Of a stretch of DNA of 34,198 nt, positions 4,032 through 32,300 are shown one piece after another. Each line of letters begins with the position of its first letter. Position 1 is the first letter of the stretch. The position numbers and the translations under genes were made by a program. The notes beneath the pieces were generated by a model, which was given only the letters and a program-made list of their open reading frames with translations, searched no databases and had not been told where the DNA came from. Location: positions 1-34,198 of the IMG/VR virus record IMGVR_UViG_3300034357_001685; one strand, written 5' to 3'. This DNA comes from a virus. Its lineage: Duplodnaviria; Caudoviricetes.

Positions 4032-5173
4032 TGGAGGCTCTTGGCGGGGTTCGATTACGGGACTACCAAATACCGGCGGTTGAGCGGTTGAGTGGGTGCG
4101 AGAGGGGGATTTGCAAGGCTCCGGCGGGGTCGGGTAAAACAATTATTGCGGCGGCGGCGCTGGATCGTTGGGTGGGACGCCGGATCGGGCGCTCTCGGGT
4201 GATATGGGTTGCGAATACGGTAGATCAGCTCGACCAGGCGCGGCGCGCGGTGGCTTTGTTCCCGGGGATCGCCCATTTCGCGGCGGTGGATTTCGCGTGC
4301 TATGCCGGCGTCGCGTCGCTCGCAGGGTATGGTTTGGTGATCTGCGATGAGTGCCACCATGTGGCGGCTCCGGGGTTTGCTCCCAAACTGGGGTTCTACG
4401 GAGGCCCTCGATGGGGGTTGAGCGCTACGCCGGATCGCGCGGATGATCTCAAGGAGACGGTCTATGCGTTGCTGGGGGACATCGTCTATGAGGTGCCGAG
4501 GGAGGCGCTGGTGGACGCCCGGCAACTGGCGCAAGCTCAGGTGCTCGTGCATGCGCCCAACCGAAAGGGGGACATGGAGGGGGACATACGCGCGGCCGCG
4601 CTGCCTGCCTATGAGGAGCGGAAACGCAAATGGCCATGGCTGTTCCGGTCAAAACAATCTGCCGATGATCAGATGGGGCGCTGCGTGTGGCAATCCGCTC
4701 AAGAGGTTGGCATTTTCCAAAACGCAGCGCGAAACCAGCGCATCGTCGCGTTGGCGCGCGAGCACGCGGCCGATTCGACGCTAATATTGGTCGGCAGTAT
4801 TGTGCATGGGTTGGCTATCGCGGCTCAGGTTGCCGGGGCCGAGGTGTGTTACGCCAAACTGGGCGCAAAAAAACGCCGCGCAATGATTGCAGCGTTTGCA
4901 GCGGGCGAGCTCAAAACCATGGTCGCAACGAGCCTGGCGGATGAGGGGCTGGATGTGCCACGGGCAAATTGCCTGATCCTTGCGGCGGCGGGACGCAGCG
5001 CGGCGAAGGCGGAGCAGCGGACGGGGCGGGTGCTGCGGGCGTTCGCGGATAAGACACACGGAACGATCCACGACTTTGCGGACTTGCAGCATTATTTCCT
5101 CGCGGCGCAAGCGCGTAAGCGGATCGCTGTTTATCGCTCCCTCGGATATACCATCACGGAGGTGACGCCATGA
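4031..5173 (+). CDS. SF2 DEAD/DEAH-box (ResIII-like) helicase
   Basis: 'LRDYQ', Walker A 'APAGSGKT', 'DECHH', 'GLSATP.R.D', 'DEGLDVP' and 'QRTGRVLR'. Start placed at ATG 4031 because the upstream extension crosses attP. Confidence 0.9.
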   Translation: MEALGGVRLRDYQIPAVERLSGCERGICKAPAGSGKTIIAAAALDRWVGRRIGRSRVIWVANTVDQLDQARRAVALFPGIAHFAAVDFACYAGVASLAGYGLVICDECHHVAAPGFAPKLGFYGGPRWGLSATPDRADDLKETVYALLGDIVYEVPREALVDARQLAQAQVLVHAPNRKGDMEGDIRAAALPAYEERKRKWPWLFRSKQSADDQMGRCVWQSAQEVGIFQNAARNQRIVALAREHAADSTLILVGSIVHGLAIAAQVAGAEVCYAKLGAKKRRAMIAAFAAGELKTMVATSLADEGLDVPRANCLILAAAGRSAAKAEQRTGRVLRAFADKTHGTIHDFADLQHYFLAAQARKRIAVYRSLGYTITEVTP

Positions 5174-9824: not shown

Positions 9825-10219
9825 TTAGCGTGTTCAGTAATCGACCGATTTTTGAAAATACCGGTTTACTGGCAGGAGGCTCGTGCATACAGCCAAGTGT
9901 GAAAACCAAAAACACCATCCCGCATGACGAGCGAAACAACTACGGGCAGGCGGCAGCAAAAGCCCTAATTCGGGCGCAGGCGGCCCGCAGGCAGGCTTTC
10001 ACTCCTCGCGAGGGGGGTGGGAGCGGAAGGCCGCTAAAATCTGCCAGAATCGCATTTTCTTGCGGTGCTGCGGACGGGTTGTTCCTGATGGTCACCCTCC
10101 GCGCTGAATTTCGGCGCTGGTGGAGTCGCCGCAATGCGGACCCCGCCATGCGGGAGTATTCCAGGACGGAGGCCCGGGCGGCCATTCGGCTGCTGCGAAA
10201 ACTCAAGGAGGCCCTATGA
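9821..10219 (+). CDS. hypothetical basic protein
   Basis: Coupled by GTGA and ATGA overlaps; the true start may be downstream (GTG 9899). Confidence 0.45.
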   Translation: MISVFSNRPIFENTGLLAGGSCIQPSVKTKNTIPHDERNNYGQAAAKALIRAQAARRQAFTPREGGGSGRPLKSARIAFSCGAADGLFLMVTLRAEFRRWWSRRNADPAMREYSRTEARAAIRLLRKLKEAL

Positions 10220-10818
10220 GGGTGGCTCTCTACTATCGGGTCAGCACCCAGGAGCAGACTACCGAGCCACAGAGGCTCGAGTTGCTGGAATACTGCCGCC
10301 GTCGGCAGTGGGACAAGATCACGGAATTTACCGACGTGATCAGCGGCAGCAAGTTTGCCCGAGTGGGGTTGGACATGCTGATGCGCGGAGTGCGCAAGCG
10401 CGCGTATGACGTGGTTGTGGTCGTCAAGCTGGACCGCCTCGGGCGGAGTCTCACGCATCTGGCGCAGCTTGTTGGCGAGCTGGAGTCGCATCGCGTGGCG
10501 GTGGTTGCCACCACGCAGGGCATCGACACTACGGAGAGCAATCCGGCCGGCCGATTGCAGATGCACGTATTGATGGCCGTGGCGGAGTTTGAGCGGGACA
10601 TCATCCGGGAGCGCACCAAGGCCGGCCTGAAGGCAGCGGTGGCCCGGGGCAGCACGCTCGGTCGGCGAGCGCTGCGGTGGACTCCGGAGCAGACGGCGAC
10701 CATTGCCGGGTGGCAGGGCACGGTTGCGGGACTCGCGACCGCCCTCGGGTGCAGCCTGGGTAAAGCGCATGGGCTGCTCCGGGCCAAGCGCCTTGACAGC
10801 GATAAACCGGCAGATTAG
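10216..10818 (+). CDS. small serine recombinase (resolvase/invertase family)
   Basis: 'MRVALYYRVST.EQ' with catalytic Ser, 'KLDRLGRS', 'AEFERDIIRERTKAG' and a C-terminal HTH; AAGGAGG upstream of ATG 10216. Confidence 0.93.
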   Translation: MRVALYYRVSTQEQTTEPQRLELLEYCRRRQWDKITEFTDVISGSKFARVGLDMLMRGVRKRAYDVVVVVKLDRLGRSLTHLAQLVGELESHRVAVVATTQGIDTTESNPAGRLQMHVLMAVAEFERDIIRERTKAGLKAAVARGSTLGRRALRWTPEQTATIAGWQGTVAGLATALGCSLGKAHGLLRAKRLDSDKPAD

Positions 10819-14367: not shown

Positions 14368-17300
14368 ATGATCGACACCGACGACGAAGAGGAATTGATC
14401 CCCGGCAGCACGGCCGAGGACTATGTGGAAGCGGAGCCGGAGCCAGTCCCCGCTGCGGCGCCTTCCGCGCCCAGCGATGATTTTGCAACGATGCCCGAGC
14501 CTCCCGAGGCCCCGGCATTTGAGGTCACGCCGAAGCCTCCGCGCCGCCCGGAGTTGAGTCCGGCGCCCTCGGACTACCCGAAGAATGTGGCGCGCATGCG
14601 CGATTGGGCGGAGCGGACGGGAGAGTGGGAAGAGCGCGAGAACGCTAAAGCGGCGCGCAAGGAATTTAGCGAAGCGCGCCGGACGCACAACGCCGAGACG
14701 CGGAAGGTGAGCGCGGCGACAGGGGCGCAGTATGACTACGACGCCGACCGCCTCGCCCGCCCGAGGATCGACCCGCAGACCGGCGAGCAGGCATTCACGA
14801 AGCGCGTGAGTCCCGTGCGGTGGGACGAGCAGGGGCGGCCCTTCCAGGTCATCCAGAACGAGCAAGGCAAGCGCAGCGAGCGGATCGCCGATCCGGATGC
14901 CGGTGCCGCGATTGGCCCGAACCCCACCGCCCCCGAAGACCCCTCTATTTACCGGAAAACCAAGTTTCAACCGTGGGAAGCCATCGACCCCGAGGAAGGC
15001 ATTAACTCCCCGGATGGCCGGGTGGTGCGCGCCAGCGCGAAGGCGCTTTTTGATCGGGAAAAAACCACGATGAAGCGCGAGCGCGACGAGATTGCCTTGA
15101 ACTTGGGCGACCCTGCGCGACCGACCGGCTTGAGCCCCGAGGCCCGGGCGAAAGTCGAAGGCGAACGGCAGGGGTTGGCGGAGCCCGCGCCGCCGCCTGC
15201 GGAGGTCAAAGGAATGTTCGGCGGAGTGAATATCGAAGCCACGGAAGCTGCGAAGAAAAAATGGCAGGAAGGCGAAGCGTTCCGCTCTGGGTTGTTGGCC
15301 GAGAAGCAAGCGATGCTGGCGGCAGACGACGAACGCGCCGGGTTGAAAGCCCGAGCCTACGAACTTGATCAAAACTTGTTTGGGCTGGAAAAAATGCCCC
15401 TCTCTGAGTTCGTGCAGGAACGCCGCAAAAAAAAAGCGGAGAGCCTGGCGGCCCTTGATCCCGAGGCCGCCCAGGCGGAGATCGAGAAGCGGGGAGCAGC
15501 GATCGCTGAGGAAGACGCCGCCACGGACGCGGCCATGCAAGAGGTGCAGCGCCGCAACGCCGCGCTGAACGAGCGCACGGCAAAAGGCATCACGCTGCAA
15601 GAAATGGACTCCGTCGCCACCGAGCGCGCCGCGATCGAAGCCGACGCAGCGGGGCTCGAGGAGCGCATTGCCAAGCGCAACGCCGCCGCCGGGGAAGTCA
15701 TGCAGGGTGTGGAGGCGATCAAGGCGAAGGACGCCGTGGAACGGAAAAAATCCCGCGACGAAATTCGTAAAACGCCCGAGCTTGCGCCTTTCGCTGATCG
15801 TCTCGACGCGCTCGACGCCGAGACCGAGACGCGGATGTCGGCCATCGACGCCATGCCGCAAGGGCCCGGCAAGGAAGCCGCCCGCGCTGCTTTGCAGGAG
15901 GACATTTCCCAAAAATCCGCCGTCATCGACAGCGAATACGGTGTCGCCGCGCGTGGAGGATTTCCAAAATCGTTTGACGATAAGGAATGGGACGACGCTG
16001 ACCGCAAAGCCTGGAAAGCCCTACCGAAGGAAAAGCAATCCGAGTTTTTGGAGACGAAAGCCTATGTGAACATCCGCGACGATATTCGCAGGCAATACGA
16101 CTTCACCGCCAACCGCACATTCGATCAATGGAAAGAGGAAAACGCCGAACGCCTCGCGGCGCAAAAACCCAACGCCACAAACGAAGAATTGCAGGCCGAC
16201 TACCAGAAAAGCCAAGAGACGATTTTGCGGGCATTGGAAGTCACGATGCGGCGAAAAGGCCCGACTCACGACGCCGCCGTGCTGGAGATTTTCCACAACA
16301 ACGACCCTCAGAAGCAGGCTTTGGCCGAGTTGGAGCGGAACCCTGCTGAGTATTGGGCCGGACAGATCAAGCGGGCTTTTGGAAATTACCAAGCATTCAA
16401 CGCCGCCGCCGCCGGGCTGATTGCCAATTTTATTCCCGGCCAGAAAGACAACGCAGCGTTAATGCTGCTGGGCGCACAGGATCAGCAAAATGACCTTGCC
16501 CGCAAATACCCGCAGGTGGTGGAAGGGATCAAAAATGTTGGATCCTCCGGCGATGCCGCCATGTGGGCTGGGCAAACATTGACGAGTTTGGCCCCGGACA
16601 TCGCCGAAAGCATAGCGGCAGGTGCAGCTGGAGCCGCCGTTGGAGCCGCCGTCGGAAGCGCCGTGCCCGTCGCGGGAACAGCGATCGGCGGAGCGGTGGG
16701 AGGTATCGGTGGTTTTTTTGCGCGATTGCTTGGCAAGGCGGCGGTTAAAAACCTTGCCAAAAAAGAACTTCTCAAGCAGGGCGTCAAAAAAATCACGCGC
16801 GAGGCGCTGGAGGCGACCGGAAAAAACATTCTCGCCCGCGAAGGTGTCGAGCAACTTTTGAAAACCGAAATCCGCCGCATCGGCGCGAAGACCGGCATCG
16901 TGCTTGGCGGAGCGGCCAGTTCCTACAAAGGCAACACGGCGGAGATTTACATGAACCTCCTCGGCGAGGAGGGCGTGGATGCCGACAGCGCCGCCGCCAC
17001 CGCGTTGGTTTTTGGCGTTCCCGCTGCCGCCATGGACATGGTGGCCGAAACCGGCCCGCTGACCCGCCTATTGGGATTTGGCGCCAAGCCCGCAAAAGAA
17101 TTCGCATCCGCCGCCGCGAAATATCGAGCCCGCGTGATGGAGGAAGCCGCGCAGTTTGGCGGAACGGTGCTCATGGAATCTGGGGCCGAGGGTGCGCAGG
17201 CGCTCACCGGCTTTGCAGCGAAACGATTCGCCAAGGACGGATTCGATTTTGCGAACTACTCGCCCATTACCCAAGAGGAATGGGATGAATTTGTCGAAAG

Positions 17301-20300
17301 TTCCGCCGCCGGAGCGCTTGGCGGCGCGGTTTTCGCCACCGCCGGAGCGGCAGGCGGATTGAGGGATGCTCGTAACGAATTCCTGCAAAACGAGCCGCCC
17401 TCCGCGCCCCAGCCTGATCCCTCTGGCACACCCCCGCCACCGGTTTTGCCCGAGAACATCGCCGCCATGCAAGCCGAGATCGGGCAGGCCGCCCCAGAGC
17501 GCCAGGCCCCACTCGCCACGGCTATCAAAGTCGTTTCCGGCGCGCCGATGGATTCGCTCACGAAGGCCGAGCAGGATGCCATCAAGCCCCATGTAGCCAC
17601 GGTCGGCGGGCAGACCGTGCTTACCGACGATATTTTGACAGAACTTTCCCAAGCCTCCCCACAGGCTGCCGCGCTCATGCAGCAGGGGAGCATCCGCGAC
17701 GAATCCACGCGGCGGTTAGAGATTCTTGAACAAGAAAACGAACAAGAAAAAAAAGGAGGTGACACACCAAATGAAATCAAGCTGCAAAACATCGGCAAAA
17801 ATGCCGGCCAAGTCGGCCAAGTCGGCTCCCAAGGCAATGAAAATGCCCAAGGGAATGAAAATGCCCAAGGCCTCGGGACGGGGGCGCTAACGCTAACAAA
17901 CCAAGTCCGCACCGGGATACAGTCCGGAGTAGCTTCAGCCGATCCCGACATGCGGGAACTGTGGGCAGATCAATTAAAGCGCAGGTTAGAGAAAAAAGGG
18001 ACATTGACATGGCAAGATGTCCCCCAAGAGCTCAACCAGGCAATGGATACAGCCTCTTTTGCATCTTTGAAGCAAGCATTAGAGGAAAACCCACAAGAAG
18101 CCATCGCAATCATCGCAGGAAAACAAAACCTGACGCCCGACGGCACGGCGGGAAGCCTCACGCTCCCGCCGTTGCCCGTGGGGCGCTACGGCAGCCTCAT
18201 CAACAAACGCGAACAAGCCGTGGCCGGCACACTGGCCACACGGTTGGTCCAAGGCGGGGCGGACCAAGCCGCCGCCGCAAAATTCAGCGAATACTATGTG
18301 AAGCGCGAGACCCTCCGGGGGTGGGGCACCGACAAACTCAAAGCCGCTGTGCAGGAATTCTCTTCGGCGGGAGGCATGACGAATCCCCAGGGCATCATTG
18401 AGAGCGTCGCCGCCTCCGATGCCTCCCAACTTGCCGAGGTCGACGCCATCACCACCCAAGTATTCAAGAGCTTGGACACCGATCCCCGCGCGGCGAGCAT
18501 GACCCCTGCCGAGCGCAAGGATTTCGAGACAGTCGTGCGCCAACAGATCGCGCCCGCCGTGCTGCGCTACGGTCCGATTCTACGGCGCCTCGAGGCATTC
18601 TTCGACCCCTCGGGCAAAGACGACCTCGCTGCAGGCTCCGACAAATTAGTCATCAACGCCGCCGCGCTCATCGGAGAACGGGGGGTGGATTTCTGGAGCA
18701 ACACCGAGAACACTGATATCATCATCTCCGAAGAGCTCGGCCACGTTTCTCAGGTAAAAATCCTCGCGCAAAAAAACCGCGAGCGCACCGGAGCGACGGG
18801 GTCCGATATGGAACTCGCCCTGGCCGAAGCCGAGGAGATCTTCCTCCAACTCCCGCAACCGCTACAGCAAGCCTCGAGCACACTTTACGGCAACTCCCCG
18901 AACCCCGGCATAAGCGGCATGGAATTCTTCCGCCAGATGCTCCAAGGCGACATCGCCATCTCCGAAGGCCGTGTGCTGGACAGGGACGGCAAAGTCATCA
19001 CCGAACTCGCGGTGAACGACGCCGGATGGATCGATAAAATGCGAGGCGTCTTTGAGCAACTCTTCAAAGCCTTCAACAGCCTACGCAGCACCCTCTCCAG
19101 CGACCTCAAGCAAGAAGGCCGCAGCGAAGCCGAGATCAAGCTGCTCACCGACCGCGTGGAGACCATCCGCACCGAGTCGCTTACATTTTTCAAATCCCTC
19201 AAAAAAGAGGGTGACCGCATCCGGGGTGCGGCGTATGAGAACCAGTATGCTACTACCCGCAACTCAAATAAAAACCAAGCCACCGACACCCGAGGAGGCA
19301 CAGGAACAACGCCAGATTCTTCGGGACTGCTACAACAAACAACGCCCCCTGGAAGCCCAAATGCGGCGCTCGATGGCACCTCAAGCCAGCAGCCTCCTGC
19401 AGGCACACCTCTTGGAGCAAATCAAGCCACCCGGCTTGCAGAGCTAGAATCCCGCGAGTCCGAGCGCGCCGCCCGCGAGGAGCGCGCCAAGGAGCGCCGC
19501 GCCGAGTATGTCGAGCAGCGCGCCGGGGATTTGAAGGATTACGAAAAGGTGGTCGCCGCCGCCCCTGAGGACGCCCGCGAGCAAGTCGCGGGCCTCGTCC
19601 AGCAAGCGCCTTCCGGCAAGGTCTCCTATGTCCTCGTCACCAACAACCGCCGCGTCCCCGCCACCTACATCGCCCTGCCCCCAGGCGTCGTGCAGACCAG
19701 CCACATCGGCCCGGATTTCCAGAAAAACCCCGAGTATGCCGGCCAAAACACCCGATCCTACGATACCGACCCCGCTGAGCAGAACAAAGTGCGCGCCGGA
19801 TCTCTGCCCGGTGCGCTAAACGAAGACATCCTTACCTCCACCGACCCCAGCAGCGCGAACAGTGCGCCGCAGGTCGCCATCGTCATCGACGCCGGTCCCG
19901 ACGGTCAGCCCCGCTCCCGCTGGCAGACAGCCGGAGGCAACGCCCGCGAGATGATGAGCAACCTCGCGCCGCAGGAAGATCAAGACCGCGTCAGCGAGGC
20001 TTGGCGCGAGAAGTCCGGGGTGTTTGGCTTCCAGTCCGTCCCCGACGGCTTCCGTGGCTACCGGTTTCTCGGCACATTCGACATCCGCACCCCCGAAGGG
20101 GCCCGCGATTACCAGAAGCTGGTCGATGATCTCAATCCCTCCACCGGCGTCGTGCAGGATGTCTCCGACCGCGCCGATCTGGATGCGAAAAATATTCCAC
20201 TCGATTTGGTGGCGGATCTTCCCGTGATGATGAGCGGCAAGCAGGCCACCGAGGCCCTCTCCCGCCTTCTCACCGCGCCCGGCGACATCGTCGAGCGCAA

Positions 20301-23300
20301 CCGCGTGGCCCCCATGGCCAAGAATCCCGCGCAGGCCCAGGCCTACATGCAACGCATCATGTTCGCTGGCGGGCTCGGCCTGCCCAAGCTCACCAACAAG
20401 ATCGCCGATTACCAGTTGCAAAACCGTAACGCCGCCTTTGTGGAACTCGCCGCCGACTCCGCCAAAGCGGGCATTGCGCTGCGCCAGAGCGGCAACCCAA
20501 GCATCGCCGACGCCTTTGGCAGCATGCTTTCCAACGTGAGCGATTACCTCGACGATGGCCGCACGCTCAAGAGCGCCTTGGAACTGGCCGCCAACCAAGT
20601 CGAGATGGATGCCGTGGTGGGCGAGACCGCAGTGGCAGTCTCCGTCGCCACGCGCCTCGGAGAGTTAATCGTCCTCGACAAGCGCGGCCGCATCAACACC
20701 GAAGCCACCAGCGATGCGCACAAAGACTACATGCTCGCGCTGGCCAGCGGGGTCGCCAAAGCCAACGAAGACGCCACCATGGGCAACATGTTTGCCGAGC
20801 AGCCCCTGTCCATGGCCGAGCGCATCGCCGACATCAACGCCGCCCACCGCCTCAAGACCCAAAAAGACAGCGAAAAGACGCTATCCGCTCCCCGCCGCCA
20901 ATCGACTCCCGCCACCCGCATCCGCGACCTCGAGCGGAAGCGCCGCCAAGAGGGGCTCAACCGCTACGAGAGCGAAGAACTCGCCCGCCTGGAGAAAGCC
21001 GCCGGGCAGCAGTTCATGGACTTCTTCGAGACCACCCGCACCCAGCGGTTCGAGTTGCAGCAGGAAGTCGCCCGCCGAGGCATCGAGAGCGCCCCCGGAG
21101 AGCAAATGGACCTCGTTCTCGCCGCCGCTCGCAGCCAAGGGCGGGTAAATGCGGCGGGAATTCTTTTAGAGACAAAGCAGGAACGATTTGGGCGCATCTA
21201 TCAAGAGCAGGAGGAGGAAACCAACGCTTTCCCGGCGGAAAAAGTCGAAACAGAAGATCAGGTTTTATCTCGTTTGCGCGGAAAATTCGGCAACGAAGCC
21301 GTTGAAAATACGATTGCAGGCTACAACGAACTTCGAACCAAGCACGAGCGGTTCAAAAAGCGTTTTGATAAAGAAATTGACGCCATGGCGCTTCAGTTCA
21401 ATGGGGAACCCATTCCAGCGCCGATCAAGGGACTCAAAAGATCAATTGAAAAAGCTTTCGATGATTACGACGGCAAGGCGTCCATGCTGAAAGATTTGCT
21501 TCGGGCCACAATCGTTGTGGATACCCTGGAAGACGCTGTAAATCTCAACGAAGAAATTCAGCGCCGGTATAAAATTATCAAATGGAAAAACCGGTTTGCT
21601 CCCCCTTTGCCAAGCGGTTACGGCGACATGTTAGGAGTTGTCGAAATGGCCCCAGGTATATTTGCGGAGATCCAAGTCCATGTGCCGGAAATCATCAAAG
21701 CCAAAAAAGTCGGGCACAAATGGTATGAGTTAGAAAGAACTTATGCGGGAGACCCGACAAAAGCCACAGAACTGGCCGATGTGCGGGCAAAAATGCAGGA
21801 ACTTTATTTGGCGGCGGCCAATGCCTTCATCATGAGGGTCACAAGCTCTCGGAATTCCGAAAAAGAAACCGGAGAGGCCATGTCCAAGTTCATGGAAGTG
21901 GTCCGGGACATTTCCCTAGGCATTCCGGTTGACCAAATTTTCGGGTCTTCGCCAGGCTCCCAAGCAACGGGCACATCGGGAAACACCTCCAGAAACTTGG
22001 TGCCATTGGCGAAATCAGATTCATTCATCACTCCTTCTCCTACGCGCGGAGCCTCGGCCGGTCAACCAGTAATTACGCTCGCCAATATTCAGGATTACGC
22101 AGGCGATGTAGATCTTTCCGAGTTGCAAAACATTGAAGGCGTTAAAATGCCTAAGGCGTTCAAAATCGACCAAGAAAAACTTTCGCGAGGCGAGGTGCGG
22201 GTTGTCTCTGTCAGCACACTGATTAGTCCTAAAAACGAGTTACTTGATCCGCGTTATTTGGCCGGCAAGAAAAAAGACCCCCGACAAACCGCCGCCGATT
22301 GGATGGCAAAAACGATCAAAGGGGAGCCAGGGACCAAACGCCGAGCCCCGCTGGATGCCATCGACAATCGCGACGGAACCTACACGATCGTAGACGGCAA
22401 CGCCACGGCGCAGGCGGCAATGCTGGCAGGTTGGAAAATGCTTCCCGTCAACATCGTCAAACCCCAAGACGCCACCCTCGCCGCCGCCCGCTCGCGCCGC
22501 AACGACGACCAACTCGCCTTCGATTTCACGGCGCCTGCCGTGCAGGAATACAAATCCGCCCTCGAGGCCGAGGGCATCACCCACCCCGTCGCCCAGGCGG
22601 CCGCCGCGCAGAGGGACCTCGGCATTCCCGCAGGCCCAGCGCTCAATTTGTTTGGCGAGCCCGACTCGCTTTTGGAGGGCAGGCAAACCACTCCCACCCG
22701 GCCCTCCGCCACACCAACTCCCGTTGCAGAACCCACCGCGCCTGCTCCCGCGACTGCTGTTCAACCGCCGCCCGCACCGGAGCCCACCCCCGAGGTATCA
22801 AATAATACAGCGCCCGCGGAGCAACCTGAATCGCAGACCGATCCCGCCGCAGTGGATCGGCTCAAGACCGCCGTGGGCGAGGCTTTGCGCAGCAACACCA
22901 GCATTGACCGCCGCGTGCTCAAAAATATGGCGCGCACGGCAGGCATCACCGATCCGGAAGCCGCCGCCAAATTGGTGGACGAGACAGCGGAACTTGCAGT
23001 GGTGGAAATAGCCCGCGAAATCGTGGCCCGTGGCGACAACCCGCTGGTCACTTACGAAAATCTGGTGGATCTCTACGCGCTGCAACCCGGCTTGACGAGC
23101 CGCACCAGCACCAGCCGGATCAACCAGGCATTCAGCACCCCTGCCCCGCTCGCCTATGTGGCCTCGCGCCTGGCCGATGTCGCCAACGGCAAGAGCGTTT
23201 CGGAATTCACCGCCGGGAACGGCATGCTGGTGATGGAATCCTCTCCATCCCGCGCGATCGTGAACGAACTCGATCCCGCCCGCGCCGCCCGCCTGCGCTC

Positions 23301-26300
23301 GCAGGGATTCCAAGTCACCGAGGCGGATGCCACGGTCGCCCGCCCGCAGCAGGTGGATACGATCGTGATGAACCCGCCCTTTGGCACGCTCATGCAAAAT
23401 GACGGCACCAACCAACGGTGGACCGTCACCGTGCCGGGCGGCGCGCAGTTCGAGACCACTCAGATCGACCACCAGATCGTGATGAACCAACTCAAAAGCC
23501 TGTCCGCAGACGGGCGCGCGGTTTTCATCATCGGTGGCAAGCTGGGCGACACGCAGGAGGCCCGCGCAGAGGCTTACAACACCCGCCAGACCCGCGAGTT
23601 TTTTTATTTTCTCTACAAAAACTACAATATCACCGACCACTTCACGCTTTCCGGCGACCTCTATCGCAAACAAGGCGCGGCCTGGCCGATTGATATCTTT
23701 GTGATCGAAGGGCAGGGCCGTTCGTCTTTGGAGTTGCCAAGCATCGTTGCCCCGTCTATAGTCAACTCTTGGGATGATCTCCGAACAAAAATTCCGGCAA
23801 ATGCTTTCTCGCGCCGAACCTTTGACAGCGAAAGAACGCTCGTGGGAGCGGACGGTCAGCCAATGGTTGAAGGGGGACGAGGACGACCTGCTGCTGAACT
23901 GGAACAACCTGCCGCTATCCGCCCTGGACAACTTGGCGGACGAGCGCCAAATCCGGAGCGCGTGGGACAACCCGGCGGAAATCCGCCCGATGCTTCTGGC
24001 GGCCAGCAACTATCTCCCGACTCCGGACTGGTATCAGGAGGGGATGCCGGAGGACGAGATGCAGGAATCCGCGATGGACTGGCTCAACAACCAAACCGCC
24101 TGGTAGCGGACGAGGAACCGGCGGAAAAGGCCGGCCGCTATCAGAACAAGTATGTGCCGCAGAGCGGCAGTTATTCGGTGGACACGCTTACGCCCACCAA
24201 CCTTGCCAGCGCGCAGAAAACCGCACTGAAAAACCTCGAAGCCCGCACCGGCATGCCGGTGGACCGCTTAGTCGCCAGCAAACTGGGGTTTGCCACACCC
24301 GAGGAACTCCACCGCAAATCGGACGGCAGCGACCGCTTCAGCGCCGAGGCCATCGACGCCCTCGCCTTGGCAATCAACAATGTCGAGAACGGCAGCAGCT
24401 TCATTATCGGCGACCAGACCGGCATCGGCAAAGGCCGCATTGCCGCAGGCATGCTGCTCTACGCGAAAAAGCGCGGGTTCATTCCCGTGTTTGTCACGAG
24501 GAAGCCCGACCTTTACGCCGACATGATTCGGGATATTTCCGACATTGGGTTTTACGACGAATTGCGCCCGCTCATTACAAACAGCGGGCAGTCTTTTGAA
24601 GACCCGCGCGGCGAGCGCGTGCGCACCGGCACCGCCGCGAAGCACGATGTGATTTTGCAATCCTTGAGGGAGACCGGCCAGCTTCCCGAAGGCACCAACA
24701 TGGTCTTCACCACCTACGACCAGTTGGGCAAGGATGCCCCGAGCAGATACACCGAGACCAAAAAAGAAAAAGCCAAGCGCAAAAAAGACGGCAGGGCCCG
24801 GCCGGACGGCAAGCGCGCCGCCATGATGCGCGCCATCGCTTCTCGCGCTTTTTTCGTGCTTGACGAAAGCCACACCGGAGCGGGCATCGACAGCGACATC
24901 GGCATCCGCTTGCGCGAGTGGCTGCCCACTTCCTCGGGCGTTTACTACTCCAGCGCCACTTTTGCCAAGAACCCCACCGCCATGCCGCTCTACGGCCAGA
25001 CGACCATGCGCTACGCAGGGCTTTCTTCCGACGAACTCACCGATGCCATGACGAGCGGCGGAGTGCCGTTGCAGCAGGTCGTTTCCTACATGCTCGCCGT
25101 GGACGGCCAATACCTGCGCCGCGAGCGTTCGTTCGACGGCATTACCTTTGGCGAGATCACCGTGGGCGGTGAAAACGATGCCCAGCTTGCCGATCAATTC
25201 GCCACCGCAGCCTCGGAGATGCTCATGATGAGCATGGATAAACGGTTCGACAAAGCGCTGAAGGATTTTTCCAAACTCCTCAAGCGCGATGCCGCCACCC
25301 TTGAGAGCAATACCGGCGAATCCGCCATGGCGAGCGTGGAGTCCTACAGCTTCGCCGGGCAGATGCAGAATCTCACGCAGCAGTTCCTGCTTTCCGTGAA
25401 AGCCCGCTCCACCGCGCAGGATGCCGTGCAGCGCGTTCGCAACGGCGAAAAAGTCGTCGTCGCCCTGCAGGCCACCAACCAATCCGCCATCGAGGATATC
25501 CAAGGCAACATGGAATGGGGCATGAATTTCAACGGACTCATGCGCCGCTATGTAGACAAAATTTTCAGCGTGCGCGTGAAGGAGCCCGGAACAGAAGAGA
25601 GCGTTTCCATGAGCGTCTTTGAGCTTGGCGCGACCTTGGGAGTGGACACCTCGGAGTTGCAATCCATCCGCCAACGCATGATCTCCATGCTTGACGCCCG
25701 CGACTTCGGCACCCTGCCACTCTCGCCGATTGACGCCATGGAGGAAATCTTTGAAGAGGCGGGCGTGACCTATGGCGAGATCACCGCCCGCAAAACCGGC
25801 ATGCGCGCGGGGGCGATCTACCAGCGCCCACCGAAAGATTTCAACACCGCCGCAAAAATCCAATCGGTAAAGGATTTCAACTCCGGCAGCAAAGACATCC
25901 TCATCATCAACGCGGCGGGCAGCACCGGCATTTCCATGCACGCGGCGAAAAACTTTGCCGACCAGCGCACCCGCACGATGCTCATCGCGCAGCCCCACTT
26001 GGACATCAATGAGTTTTTCCAGACTCTTGGCCGCATCAACCGCACAGGGCAAGTCACCCTGCCGAGCTTCTACATCGTGCGCAGTGAGCTTCCCGCCGAG
26101 CGCCGCATCGCCGCCGTGCTGCGTTTGCGAATGGCAAATCTCAACGCCAACACAACCGGAGCCGCCGAGAGCAACGTTTCTGAAAATGTCACCGGCGATT
26201 TTCTCAACGAATACGGCGACCAGGCCGCGCAGACCGCTTTGACGAACAATCCGGAAATCCTCACCAAGATGATGCGGATTTTTCCGAAATACTACGCCCC

Positions 26301-29300
26301 GAGGTCGTCCCAAGAGAACAGCGAAAGCGAAGCGGTCGAGATGGAGCCCGGCCAGTTCATCCGCAAGCTCACCGGCCACATGGTCGTGCTCACCATCGCC
26401 GAGCAAGAGGCCATGTGGAACTCCATCGACGCCGAATACGCCTCGATCATCAATTATCTCAACGAAACCAATACCAACACGCTCCAGGCCCAATCCTACG
26501 ACTACCGAGCGAAGACGGTGGAAAGCACCGTGATTTTCCAAGGCGAGAACGCCGAGGGATCTTCCATGTTCTCCTCGCCTGCCTACCTCGAGCGCGTGGA
26601 AATCAACGATCCCCGCCAGCCCATGACGCTGGCCGAGGCAAAAGAACTCCAACAAGCCGCCCCGGAGGACATGCAACGCGTGGCCGAGGAATTTCGCAAA
26701 GCGTCCCAGAACGCCGAAGAGGTCGCCATCGCCCGATTGAAATCCCAGATACAGGAATGGAACGACGAACGCGACAACCGCTACCGCTCCCGTTTCCGCC
26801 AGACACGCGAACTCGTGAACCGTATGTCCAACTACGCTGGCCGGTTCGTCCAGATCGAGATGGGCGAGGAGACCATCGTCGGCATCGTCACCGCCCTGCG
26901 CACCAACGCCCAGCAAAGCGGCGCGCCCTCGCAGCAAAGCGTGGTCATTTCCACCAACACGCCCAACCGGAAACTCACGATTCCCTTGAGCCGCGTGGAG
27001 TCGATCAATTTCGTGCCCCCCTACAACAACTCCCGCATGGAGGAGCAATGGGCGCGGCCCGATCAATCCCGCTCCGAGCGAGTCATTGTCACCGGCAACA
27101 TCCTGGGCGCTTACAGCGCGTTCAACCGCATGGGCCGTGGCACCGGTCGCATCATCACTTTCACCACGGAAAACGGAGCCGTGCGCACCGGCATGGAAAT
27201 GCCCCGTTCGTGGGCGGAGACGCGCATCGTCGAGGTGCGCGAGCATGGCCAAGCCCGGCAGATTTTGTTGGACCAGCAAAGAACCCTCACCACCGCCACC
27301 GGAGCGAACCTACGCTACAACACGACGGATCGCGTGCTCGTGCTCAATGTCCCCGGCGACCGCCAGCGCGGCGGGCTTTTCTGGCGCAACCCCCAACTCA
27401 ATTCCCTCATGATCGGCGGGGAATTCCGACAAACCGGCGGCAACATGGTTGCCAATGTGAGCCCACAGCGCCTACCGGAACTGATCGGGTGGTTTAACCG
27501 CAACAACCACACACTCACGCATGTTGAAACCCCCGGCGACCGCACCCTCGCCGCCGCACGCCGCCAGACCTACGATCCCAACCAACTCCAACTCGATTTC
27601 GATGCCGCCCCGCGCGACCAGGTCGCGGCGCAGGAGGATGCGGATAAATCCGCCGCCGCCCGCTTCCAGTCCGGCCTCGAGGGCGTGATGGGCCTCGCCT
27701 CGGGCTACTCCAACATCCCGGGCGTGGACATGGACGAAGTGCTTCAGACCGCCCGCATCGCGCTGGCCGATGCCGCCCGCTCGTTCGACGCCTCGCGCGG
27801 CGTGCCGTTCGGCCCCTACTCCTCCATCGTCGTGCGCAACCGGCTCAACAGCCTCTACCGTCGCGAGAGCCTCCGCCGCGAGCGCATCCCGCAGAGCCTC
27901 GACGAACCACTCCCCGGCGACTTCAGCGAGACCCGCCAAGACTACACGCCCGACACCACCACGCCCGATGCCGCCACCACCGCCACCCGCAACGAAGCCC
28001 GTGGCCTCATCGACACCATCACCGCCACGCTCCCAGAGCGCATGCGCGCCGCCGTCGAGGGCTACATGCAACGCCGCCAACAGGAAGAAATCGGCGAGGA
28101 ATTCGGCATCTCCAAACAAGCCGTCTCCCGCCTGCAGCAAGAAGGATTCAAACGCCTGCGCCAAAAACTCAACGAACGCGGGATTTCGAGTGTGGGAGAA
28201 CTCTTGTCAGCTCCTCAAAAAAACACGCCGCTCGGAAGCGAACGAGCGCCATTCTACCTCAAATCCGCCGAAGTCCTCGACCAGAAGGTGCAAGGCAAGA
28301 GTGCCACGCTCGACCAGATCAAAGCCCTCCTCTCGCCGCAAAACGGCATCAAGGCCGAAGAGGTCAAGTGGACCGGAGTGATGCAGGAAGCCGAGCGCCT
28401 CGCCAAAGAAAACAACGGCAAGGTGCCGAAGGACGCACTGATGGAGTTTCTGGCAAAGGATGGGAGTGTGCGCTTGGAGGAAGAGTTGTTTGGATATCAC
28501 AAAGATGCAGTCTATCCGGCAAGTTGGTATGCAGAAAAAAAACCAAACGGAATCTGGTGGGTCGTTGATCCAGATGATTTGGAATCGGGAAGTCCTGCTT
28601 TACGGGCTACCGGCGAAACAAGAACCGAAGCCTGGAATAACGCATTGCAGAGTTATCGCAGAAGGTCTCAGCGCGAAACTGTAAAATACGAGCAATACCA
28701 ACTCCCCGGCGGCGAAAACTACCGCGAGGTGGTGCTGGCAATTCCTGTTAAAGTAAGTTTGCCTAAAGGATATGAGGCAAGGCAAGAAAATGGACAATGG
28801 GGAGTTTTTGCAGTTACTGACGATGGGAATATCTATGGTGAAGGATCGACTCGCGATCAAGCAATTCAAAGAGCAAATGAATACCTAAAAACAGGTAAAA
28901 CAACCTCTGAACTTGATCCTTCATACACCTCCTCCCACTTCTCCGACATCCCCAACTATGTCGCCCACATGCGCCTCAACGAGCGCACCGATGCGGAGGG
29001 CAATCCCGGATTGTTTGTGGAAGAGATTCAAAGTGACCGGCATCAGGCGGGGCGGGAGAAGGGGTATGCGCTGACAGAATCGGAACGAGCAGAAGTGAAA
29101 GCTCTGGAAGATAAGGCAAGACGCGAAGGTGGCGTTGTGAGGTTCAGCGCAGAAGACAGGGCGCGATGGGATGAGTCAGGCGCAAAATTTGAAGGCGCTG
29201 GCATCCCAGACGCCCCTTTCCGCACGACTTGGCCCCTGCAACTTTTTAAACGCGCCTTGCGCGATGCCGTCTCAAGCGGCAAGGACTGGATCGGCTGGAC

Positions 29301-32300
29301 GACCGGCGAGACGCAGGCGGCAAGGTATTATTTAAGCAAGCAGGTTCAAGGCGTCATTGTGGACCGCCAAAGCAACGGCAATTTTTCCATTCAAGTGAAG
29401 CCCATTGGACGGAACGATTACGAGGTTGTTCAACGCGGCGTCAAGGAAGACAAGGTAGAGGAATATATCGGCAAAGAACTCGCATCAAAACTTGAGGACA
29501 AAGCGCGCAATCAGTTCGAGGGTCTTGACCTCAAGCTCGGCGGCGAAGGAATGCGCGGCTTCTACGACCAAATCCTGCCCAAGGAAATCGCCAAGTATGT
29601 GAAGCAGTGGGGAGGGAAGGTGGAGAAAACAATCATCGAAACTCCAACCCCAGGTTATGAGGCCTACGCTAAGACTAAAATCTTCAAAGATGCTACCCCC
29701 ATCTGGCGCGTGGGCATCACTTCGCAAATGCGCGAGAGCGTCCAAAAAACAGGCCAATCCCTTTTCGCCCCATCCGGCGCACCCCAGGGCGACGGGGGGT
29801 TCTTTCGCCCCGAGGACGAGCCGTTTGATGAGCATGTGAACCAGCTTCTGAACGATCTCCAAGGCGTGCCGTTCGACATGGATGGCGCCGTGCCGTTGCA
29901 GGAAAAAGCGGCGCAAGAAGAGGGTAGGGGACAACCCTACCAAGTCGGCCGCCCCGACCTGGCCTTCGGCGCGAACAATCCCGATGTGCGCGGGTTGGAT
30001 CAATTCTACACCGACCGGTTCTTGCCCGAGACCGAGGCCCAATGGGAAACCTCCGCCCGCGATATGGTGGCGAAGGATTTTGAGGGCACCCGGCGCTCGA
30101 TTGAAAAAGCCGGTCTCGCCGGGCAGACGATCTCGCCGGAACTCACCAAAGCCTCCGACCAGATCGCCAATTCGCTTCGCCAAAAAATGCTCCAGACCGG
30201 CAAGGATGAAGACCGCCGGGCGTTCAATGTTTTCTGGTATGCCTACCGCTCCACGGGCACCGAGGCGGGCCGCGCGTTGGCCGCGCGCCGCGACCCCTTC
30301 AAGACCCCCGCCATGCGCCACCGCGAATTCCTCATAGACCTCATGCTCACGCCGGGCAAGAAGGACAAGGCGCGCATCGATGCCGAGCCGGACCCCGCGA
30401 AAAAAGCCAACCTCATCGACAGCGTGACCGCCGCGCTTCTCAAAAAACTCAAGGATGCCGGAATCTCTCCCGAGGACATTCTAGGCAACCGCGTGGTCGT
30501 GGGTCTGAACAACGCAGAGATCCAGCGCCAATTCCGCACCGGCCTCAATGCCAAGCAGGCCGAGGTCTTCGATCTTCTCCTGCGCAAAAACCAAACGCCC
30601 ACGCAGATCGCGCAGCGCACCGGCATGAAGCCCGACGCCGTGGAAGCCGTCTTCACCGCCTTCAAAAACCGGATGCGCCAGCAGCATCTTGCCAAATTCA
30701 AAGCCGGTATCCACAAGCAAACCGAAGCCACCCTCGGGGCCGCCCGCACGCCGACCCCCAAAGCAGCGGGACTCTTCGGCGACCAGGTCTCAGACGCCGA
30801 AGCCGATGCCGCGTTCAACCAATGGTTCAGCGGCATGGTGGGCACGAGCGATACCAAGAAAATCGGCCGGCCGAAATTCCGCATCGACGATCCCGCCCAT
30901 GTGATGCGACTCGCCCGCGCGATCCAAAGCGCCCGTGGCGAAGCGGGTCTGAGCGACATGGCCTACGAATGGTGGATCATGAACATCCTCTCGGGGCCGC
31001 AAACCCAAGTGGTCAACATCGCAGGCAACTCCGGTTTCCTCGCGCTCGACACCACGCTGCAGCGCGGCATGGAGGCACTTGTCAATATTTTCGTGCGCGA
31101 CCAGCAAGCGGCGCAGTTCGGAGAGTTCCAATCGTTGTTCAAAGGCATCCTTCCAGGCATCACCAAAGGTCTCGCCATGGCCGCGAAAGCGTGGAGCGCC
31201 GAGCACGATTTCTACGAGCACACCGTCCTCGGCACCCCGCTGGAACTCGGCCAATCCGACAAGCTCGGCAACACCCGCGCCGCCATCCCCGGCCAAGCGG
31301 GCAAAGTGATCCGCATCCCCGGCCGCGCCCTGCTTTTTGCCGACAGCTTCTTCAAATCGCTCAGCGGGCAAATGAATGTCGCCGCCTTCGCCTACCGCAT
31401 CGCCAAGGCCGAAGGACTCACCGGCCAAGCCCTCACGGACCGCGTGGCGCTTCTTTCCAAGACCCGCAACGAGGTTGTCAGCGAAAACATGCCTTCCGCC
31501 GCCCCTTCGCAGGAAATGGTGGAGTTTTTCGCCCGTCAGCTCGCCCGCCGCGACGAATCGCTCGATCCTGCTGCCCTCGTGGCAAACCGCTCCAGCGAGG
31601 CATGGGAACTCGCCCGCGAGCAAGCCGCCTACGATGCCGCCAAGGCCGCAGGCTGGACCGAGGCCGCGTGGATTCGCGCCGTGGACAAATCCAAGGAAAT
31701 GACCTTCCAGCAGGATTTGCAGCGCCGCGCCGAGGGCGGCAACTTGTTCGAGGACGCCGCCGCGAAGCTGCAGGATGCACGGTTCAACAACCAACTCATC
31801 GGGTTTTTCTTCCCGTTCGTCAAAACCCCCTACAACATCTTCCGCACCGGCATCCGCAAATCCCCGCTCGGAGCCGCGAACCTCACCTTCCAAGCCGGGA
31901 AGGGCCTCCTTTCGATGAAGGATGGCAAGCCCTTCCTCGAAGGCGATCCCACCCTCGTGCGCGACATGAGCGAGCAACTCCTCGCCTGGACCGCCATGGC
32001 GCTCATCTTCGGAGCCGTGCAAGGCGACGAGGACGATGACGACAAACTTCTCCTCATCACCGGCAGCCAGCCCCGCAGCGAATCCAGCGCAGGAATCCGC
32101 GACCTCAACACCCGCGCCACCGGGGGCGAGTATGTGATCCGGATCGGCGGGCGCAATGGCATCACCATCCCCTACGGCCGCCTCGATCCCATCGCCACCG
32201 TGCTCGGCACCACCACCGACCTCATCCGCTCGATCAAACGCAACGGCACGCCCACCGAAAATCTCGCCTCCGTGTGGAACTACATGGTCGCGCAAACCAA

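Follow-up and report, generated by a model that had tools for sequence, protein, structure and literature searches.

The DNA analysed here, hereafter the window, comprises 34,198 nucleotides (nt) of the virus record IMGVR_UViG_3300034357_001685 (Caudoviricetes). It occurs in DNA runs from lake water; no RNA run was listed as holding it, which has no bearing on expression. It is a linear and 56% complete record in which replication genes, a resolvase gene and a terminase-like gene are followed by a single open reading frame (ORF) of 6176 amino acids (aa) on the plus strand (14368-32898). The product is a giant DarB-type polyvalent protein with the Pfam domains AAA_34, Helicase_C_4 and Sigma70_r2/r4 together with N6_Mtase, and 776 giant homologs were found. 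It carries, in one large multi-domain protein, an N6-adenine methyltransferase domain (22918-23787; PF02384, E-value 3.2e-4, kept in relatives) and then a Strawberry-notch superfamily 2 (SF2) helicase module (24130-26466; PF13872 and PF13871), the layout of DarB-type polyvalent proteins, a name that follows PMC5512222 (Iyer et al. 2017). In the initial annotation, four low-complexity linkers of this protein were proposed to hold small genes in other frames, here termed ORF1 (17771-17890, +1 frame), ORF2 (19235-19447, +1 frame), ORF3 (21804-22031, minus strand) and ORF4 (23801-24106, +1 frame). The giant ORF and the four nested frames translate as claimed, the latter into 39, 70, 75 and 101 aa, respectively.

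The closest relatives of the giant protein, P0004 and P0005, are known as proteins alone. They are 92-93% identical to the window over the methylase-helicase region and unrelated to it at about aa 2260-2700 and 4600-5100 of the giant protein. Parts of 17000-25500 are also present on contigs from four other lake-water runs, which differ from the window by two changes or fewer each; as no frameshifting indel is listed among these changes, an assembly error is excluded for the parts so covered.

Some of the features first taken as marks of nested genes were found to carry little weight. The three +1 ATGs do sit in main-frame N-E, Y-E and N-A dipeptides, but these dipeptides are not evidence, because under the genetic code no +1 ATG can lie in any other kind of dipeptide. 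Likewise, an open frame by itself is weak evidence, since the frame remained open in 37-81% of synonymous resamplings of the four linkers. The G+C content of third codon positions (GC3), said to move out of the main frame in the +1 cases, did so clearly in ORF4 only (main-frame GC1/2/3 of 0.83/0.60/0.43); ORF2 was ambiguous (0.62/0.61/0.43), ORF1 showed no shift (0.66/0.39/0.59), and main-frame GC3 also drops in low-GC stretches without a supported nested gene, for example at 28400-28900. The frames were further ranked by how far the 3-periodic Markov score of the alternative frame exceeded that of the main frame, with the model trained on the other genes of the phage and the rest of the giant gene. 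Among the 147 alternative-frame ORFs of the giant gene, ORF4 ranked first (+54.5 bits), ORF3 third (+5.8 bits), ORF2 sixth (-1.0 bits) and ORF1 20th (-11.2 bits). The second rank was held by a 32-aa +1 ORF at 28790-28888, which the initial annotation did not mention and which lies in a low-GC cassette and is preceded by a Shine-Dalgarno sequence (SD) of -5.6.

These results bear on the alternative that low-complexity linkers yield all four frames as by-products, without any of them being translated. The frequency of open frames after resampling, the code-forced start dipeptides and the scores of ORF1 and ORF2 below the main frame all agree with it, and a protein-only substitution test, standing in for a two-frame comparison of nonsynonymous and synonymous rates (dN/dS) of P0004 and P0005, was not significant (P 0.3-0.4) and uninformative. 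The by-product explanation is nevertheless very improbable in view of the frame-reversed selection, confident family fold and SD enrichment at the ORF4 site and of an ORF3 homolog that exists free-standing. In addition, an acidic methylase-helicase linker of an Acinetobacter element (locus L004, 15780-16197) has no nested ORF and shows, as a natural negative control, that the ORF can be absent.

The ORF4 site was compared in 80 viral and 80 genome loci fetched by the helicase, plus L002-L004, from which duplicates, loci on the wrong strand, loci whose linker was shorter than 150 nt and loci that had no methylase match were removed. An ATG-led +1 ORF of at least 60 aa was found at the methylase end in 138 of the 144 loci (75/78 phage loci and 63/66 genome loci), starting mostly +7 or +10 nt from that end, and the window likewise has an ATG-led +1 ORF beginning there. 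No locus has such an ORF in the +2 frame. The expected number was about 5-6 when judged by helicase windows and 22-28 when judged by synonymous resampling. The starts were preceded by an SD in 114/138 cases, compared with 22% of 2436 control ATGs. The dN/dS of the linker, taken over 45 non-overlapping pairs, was 0.38 in the +1 frame and 1.47 in the giant frame; the helicase mirrored this pattern (1.70 in +1, 0.12 in the main frame), and the +1 identity exceeded the main-frame identity in all 45 pairs. The pairs were aligned on the +1 peptide, which somewhat favours that frame and to this extent tempers the result. One cluster took in 114 of the 139 peptides from the site, and an alignment of 61 sequences gave a model with a predicted local distance difference test (pLDDT) score of 95.7 and found 729 protein clusters at 50% identity; a Foldseek search with this family model returned nothing at E ≤0.001. 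Standard annotation overlooks such genes, as had been suggested: in phage BS-TP4, only the 5391-aa gp3 is listed over a 119-aa +1 ORF (10032-10388 of its record). The prophage loci L110 and L124 are further carriers of the ORF4-type gene.

In the window, the frame of ORF4 ends at 24106 as first described, whereas its start is more likely at 23774 than at 23801, because the relative P0003 keeps the former Met and has no Met at the latter position. ORF4 (23774-24106) would therefore encode an acidic protein of 110 aa (isoelectric point (pI) 4.3), predicted as a helical bundle, and fills the methylase-helicase linker. An SD is absent at both candidate starts. A sigma70-type promoter-like site, TTGCCA-17-TATAGT, lies within the methylase coding sequence (23734-23762, + strand) and was the sole such site found in 17400-24300, where 1.3 were expected by chance. 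The window clusters with L007, L013, L017 and L036 (support 0.88), and TTGCC(A/G)-17-TAnnnT occurs at the same place in 5/5 members of this clade, the pattern being partly imposed by conserved Leu-Pro codons. The promoter-like site is restricted to this clade and not general at the ORF4 site, with 4/106 loci scoring ≥9 and 1.3 expected. An 83%-identity homolog of the window peptide is called as a gene on short contigs. Direct searches of viral contigs with the ORF4 peptide gave no match, and Foldseek with its model gave nothing at E ≤0.001. On the other side, homology of the window peptide to the main family was undetectable (E 9.8; HHalign probability 0.5%; shuffle controls), as was homology to three sub-groups of the site peptides, and its helical model is modest (pLDDT 69, with four of the five models at 45-53). 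The window's own ORF4 is supported by its position, its first-ranked coding score, the 83% homolog, the helical model and the promoter-like site, and it is very probably a real gene.

The fixed ATG argues as well against the alternative in which the +1 ORFs are no separate genes but tails, added when programmed frameshifting cuts the giant protein short. Two database proteins (P0235 and P0269) do fuse the methylase end to the +1 peptide, but sequence errors would explain them equally well. With the ATG fixed and led by an SD in most of the loci, often with a +1 stop shortly before it, and with ORF3 outside the reach of such a mechanism, this explanation is hardly credible.

As to function, the fixed linkage to the methylase-helicase and the acidity of the product raise the possibility, at somewhat less than an even chance, that the ORF4 protein binds the methylase-helicase as an acidic partner and restrains or chaperones it. 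ORF4-type genes might instead be real but unrelated in function to the giant protein, being passengers (for instance exclusion factors) that a free piece of DNA accommodates; the family domain bears unrelated extensions in 18/21 long matches, and different clades hold non-alignable peptides at the site. At 35-40% helicase identity, however, cyanobacterial, proteobacterial and phage loci all keep the start in a fixed position with respect to the methylase end, and the passenger explanation is considered rather unlikely. The family domain is found C-terminally in unrelated proteins as well (P0130, P0178, P0202, P0215, P0254, P0157, P0198, P0200 and P0151), several of which have hydrophobic N-termini by eye, with one tandem pair; these are possibly membrane-anchored decoys.

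ORF3 directly follows a RelA/SpoT-type synthetase domain of 188 residues (21265-21828, + strand), a Tas1/Apk-like domain predicted to act as a (p)ppApp synthetase. The domain alone matched Pfam RelA_SpoT weakly (E 0.076). With a five-sequence profile (A4) searched against the PDB, it was found to share the RelA/SpoT synthetase fold, to conserve the Syn-type residues and to lie nearer to Tas1 (6ox6_A, E 1.8e-35) than to Rel or SAS enzymes, the next match being Rel enzymes at 2.1e-7. Residues K55, R59, K63, D77, R80, G118, Y119, E135 and Q137 were invariant in 22 sequences including the window. PAAR or MuF domains were not detected and the domain is internal, so it falls outside the strict Apk1/Apk2 definition.

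The ORF3 frame on the minus strand begins with GTG at 22031 and has an ATG immediately after it at 22028, from which 74 aa (21804-22028) are encoded. The product is acidic (pI 4.6), in contrast to the pI of 8.9 of the Tas1-like domain. Of the SD and promoter first ascribed to ORF3, the SD is present (AGGAG, at -7.3), whereas a promoter search in the window found none. The domain was found in 34 viral loci, internal to a longer ORF in 21 and terminal in 13. In all 21 internal loci it is accompanied by a small opposite-strand gene of the same family: 19 are nested, as 67-79-aa antisense ORFs in the same frame as that of the window and ending at the domain end, and two are free-standing (L196 and L197), where the minus-strand homolog lies past the ORF end, about 2.3 kb downstream. 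In L196 (961-5957), the ORF has a portal-like start by eye and an internal RelA-like domain, and the partner-family gene is convergent. At the terminal-domain loci, most of which represent one PHB04-like group, a small sense gene comes next in 12/13, and the 13th contig ends there; in phage PHB04 the order is domain, small gene and alarmone hydrolase gene. When the search was made from the peptide side, the gene was antisense directly behind the domain in 25/25 loci, 13 of them new contigs. In the window, too, a small gene stands directly behind the synthetase domain, though on the opposite strand.

An SD of -5 or stronger was present at 11/11 ORF3-type starts, compared with 20% of 1091 background ATGs, and a -10-like site at 8/11, compared with 6% of background. 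The window ORF3 reached 14.9 bits with a profile from which it had been left out, a score reached by 0/1000 shuffles, and ranked first of 113 antisense segments. In leave-one-out tests, 10/12 lineages gave 0/1000 shuffles. A direct search of viral contigs with ORF3 returned one 15-residue match in another frame, which was rejected. From its sequence and context, ORF3 is very probably a real gene. The proposal of genes within a gene is therefore strongly supported for ORF3 and ORF4, while ORF1 and ORF2 are unproven.

Against this stand several points. The 21 internal loci amount to about ten lineages, and the profile behind the count of 21/21 was built from 15 of the loci; in the leave-one-out tests, L181 was marginal (8/1000) and L201 failed (266/1000); and the window ORF3 lacks the -10-like site that most of its relatives carry. 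The two-frame dN/dS is low (0.29 vs 0.33), but it cannot separate the frames of ORF3, because their third positions coincide. The ORF3 family has no sequence match to any PDB chain, Tis1 included, so the likeness of ORF3 to Tis1 rests on gene position, and the sense and antisense partner families align weakly, mainly in a terminal helix.

The immunity role was accordingly judged from gene context, charge and analogy, by which ORF3 is likely to be a Tis1/IapK-like immunity gene of the adjacent domain; of the partner roles first proposed for the nested genes (immunity proteins, chaperones, DNA-binding peptides), the first fits ORF3 by this gene context. ORF3 could also be real but not an immunity gene: it might encode an activator or chaperone, the product of the domain might be a non-toxic signal, for example (p)ppGpp, or the antisense RNA might be the functional part. 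The lack of a sequence match to Tis1 or IapK, the putative character of the domain's activity, and the failure to find an HD hydrolase gene in the 56%-complete contig speak for these options. The linkage of domain and ORF3 is tight from both search directions, however; the size, charge and position agree with Tis1/IapK-type genes; and the conserved peptide motifs and SD point to a protein, which makes a non-immunity role fairly unlikely. In summary, the linkers probably carry at least two separate small genes, of which the antisense ORF3 would be the immunity protein of the preceding Tas1-like domain. The idea that the polyprotein grew by reading through older small genes is consistent with these data, because the ORF4-type linker shows no constraint in the main frame and one homolog of ORF3 is a free-standing gene.

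The domain and ORF3 lie in a 1.3-kb stretch with a GC content of 0.505 between LAAAR-coding repeats, the flanks having 0.63-0.65. The left repeat (21109-21137, + strand; LAAAR motif, repeat family D19) marks the position beyond which identity to the relatives collapses, and the right repeat (22468-22495, + strand; TLAAAR motif) bounds the low-GC cassette on the other side. P0004 and P0005 hold a zeta-toxin-family domain (PF06414) at the same place, from which it follows that the module is exchanged in frame and that the nested partner gene travels along. The zeta-type cassette was not found among loci with DNA. In P0004, a linker after the zeta-like domain (aa about 2485-2530) starts with D-E, a possible +1 ATG, and has a shifted-frame-like composition; it is possible that it hides a nested antitoxin. 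The (T)LAAAR-coding repeat recurs at module boundaries at 21109, 22468, 27538 and 30724 of the window, and the cassettes between such motifs vary among the relatives, those of the P0004 type having an additional module near 27540. Within the RelA cassette, 22180-22467 has no Pfam match; by its motif IVDGN it resembles a ParB/Srx-type domain. Sigma-70 regions 2 and 4 of the giant protein lie at 27685-28164 and could steer the host polymerase after injection.

ORF1 (17771-17890) would encode a basic peptide of 39 aa (pI 11.4) rich in Lys, Met and Pro. Its SD, AAGGAGGT, was confirmed and is, at -14.7 kcal/mol, the strongest among the 147 alternative-frame ORFs of the giant gene. The start motif EGG..NE is retained at the same spot in P0004 and P0005; across 121 giant proteins the (E/K)GG..NE motif was not enriched (29 seen vs 49 expected). 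ORF2 (19235-19447), a possible gene of 70 aa, lies between an unnamed domain and a ddrB-ParB-like domain (19585-20247, + strand), which has no direct Pfam match and was recognised through a homolog in L228 that matches PF18763 at 2.7e-19. AY(E/G) at the ORF2 start is retained in P0004, P0005 and the distant L190, in which the +1 frame at this site is open for more than 70 codons (GC 0.61/0.33/0.78). An SD-led +1 ORF upstream of the ddrB-ParB-like domain was seen in 7/15 loci, mostly not gene-like, and was not counted as it came without a control. The negative coding scores of both ORFs speak against their being genes, as does the dissimilarity of ORF2 and its L190 counterpart peptide, for which 980/1000 shuffles scored equally well. 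On these grounds translation of ORF1 could go either way, and the same holds for ORF2. If translated, they would most likely be small basic DNA-binding or packaging peptides.

In a scan of 81 giant genes, 76 alternative ORFs exceeded the main frame by more than 8 bits, every one of them in the +1 frame; 51 were the methylase-linker gene and 19 others had an SD, many of these being short and basic. Extra +1 ORFs are thus common in giant genes. Short basic SD-led +1 ORFs of a composition like that of ORF1 were noted in L007 (5334-5507), L041 (5685-5954), L055 (6468-6647) and L077 (7332-7526), none with a PHROG match. For the four window peptides and the peptides of the relatives, Pfam, PHROG and NCBIfam held no relevant family, the ESM Atlas gave no usable match, and tblastn of representative peptides against a cultured-phage collection gave no match.

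Embedding of a whole gene in another is known from phages: the spanin gene Rz1 is a complete +1-frame gene inside Rz and makes the partner protein of Rz. In the window, unlike Rz1/Rz, several cytoplasmic genes would lie in the linkers of a giant enzyme, one of them antisense, and the partnership is putative. The antisense overlapping genes olg1/tle3 of P. aeruginosa are described as translated, under purifying selection and evolutionarily novel (PMC8850804), and olg1/gene 10 of phage Fc02 as antisense-embedded genes with exclusion activity (PMC9936078). ORF3 differs from olg1/tle3, as reported there, in belonging to a family that goes with a single toxin-like domain and has free-standing members.

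The closest known systems are the (p)ppApp toxin-immunity sets Tas1-Tis1 (Apk1) and Apk2-IapK/BcTis1-Aph1 (PMC10083569, PMC12226406, PMC11782079), which the window resembles in having a RelA/SpoT-type domain, closest to Tas1, and directly behind it a partner gene of about 70 aa. The gene order apk2-iapK-aph1 is given for Apk2 sets (PMC12226406, PMC10083569), and Tis1/IapK-type genes are stated always to follow Apk2 homologs (PMC10083569). The terminal-domain relatives share this sense layout with Apk2-IapK, and PHB04 adds the hydrolase gene. Unlike these sets as they are described, the window has the domain internal to a 6176-aa protein and the partner antisense and fully nested. The polyvalent proteins, including P1 DarB, similarly combine a methylase and an SF2 helicase with other domains, and RelA/SpoT domains are listed among them (PMC5512222). 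In the main text of PMC5512222, 'overlap' does not occur, 'nested' occurs twice, concerning a hairpin where checked, and 'reading frame' once. An abstract-level literature search, with subscription papers mostly outside its scope, turned up no account of genes nested in polyvalent proteins and none of an immunity gene nested antisense in another gene, although the supplements of PMC5512222 may list gene neighbourhoods. The parts, namely embedded genes and Tas1/Apk toxin-immunity sets, are known, and their combination appears to be new.

By analogy with P1 DarB and other polyvalent proteins, the giant protein would be packaged and injected. Its Tas1-like domain would make (p)ppApp, and the ORF3 protein would bind the domain and block it. 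An ordinary downstream immunity gene is impossible behind the domain, because the giant frame continues for 3700 codons; this would explain why ORF3 lies in the following linker on the other strand and has a ribosome site to itself. The nested genes would be expressed independently of the giant gene, and the toxin-like domain and its antidote would move as one module. ORF3 would thereby protect the producing cell and possibly also block incoming kin phage. These results suggest how a toxin-like enzyme could sit in the interior of a 6000-residue phage protein and yet leave the producer cell unharmed, and how toxin-like domains are exchanged along with their antidotes.

Two unannotated protein families result from this analysis, one of them with the confident model that found no Foldseek match. 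Some linkers read as disordered code in another frame, which matters for how hundreds of phage and prophage genes are annotated and their domains analysed. A more doubtful extension is that giant injected phage proteins as a rule pair each dangerous domain with an antidote or partner gene, which would lie in a different frame of the following linker and have a promoter and a ribosome site to itself, and that these units are swapped as in-frame cassettes between short repeats. If this rule were true, the 'disordered linkers' of giant proteins would largely be the shadows of hidden genes, and the hidden genes would provide self-protection and superinfection immunity at a level that annotation has missed.

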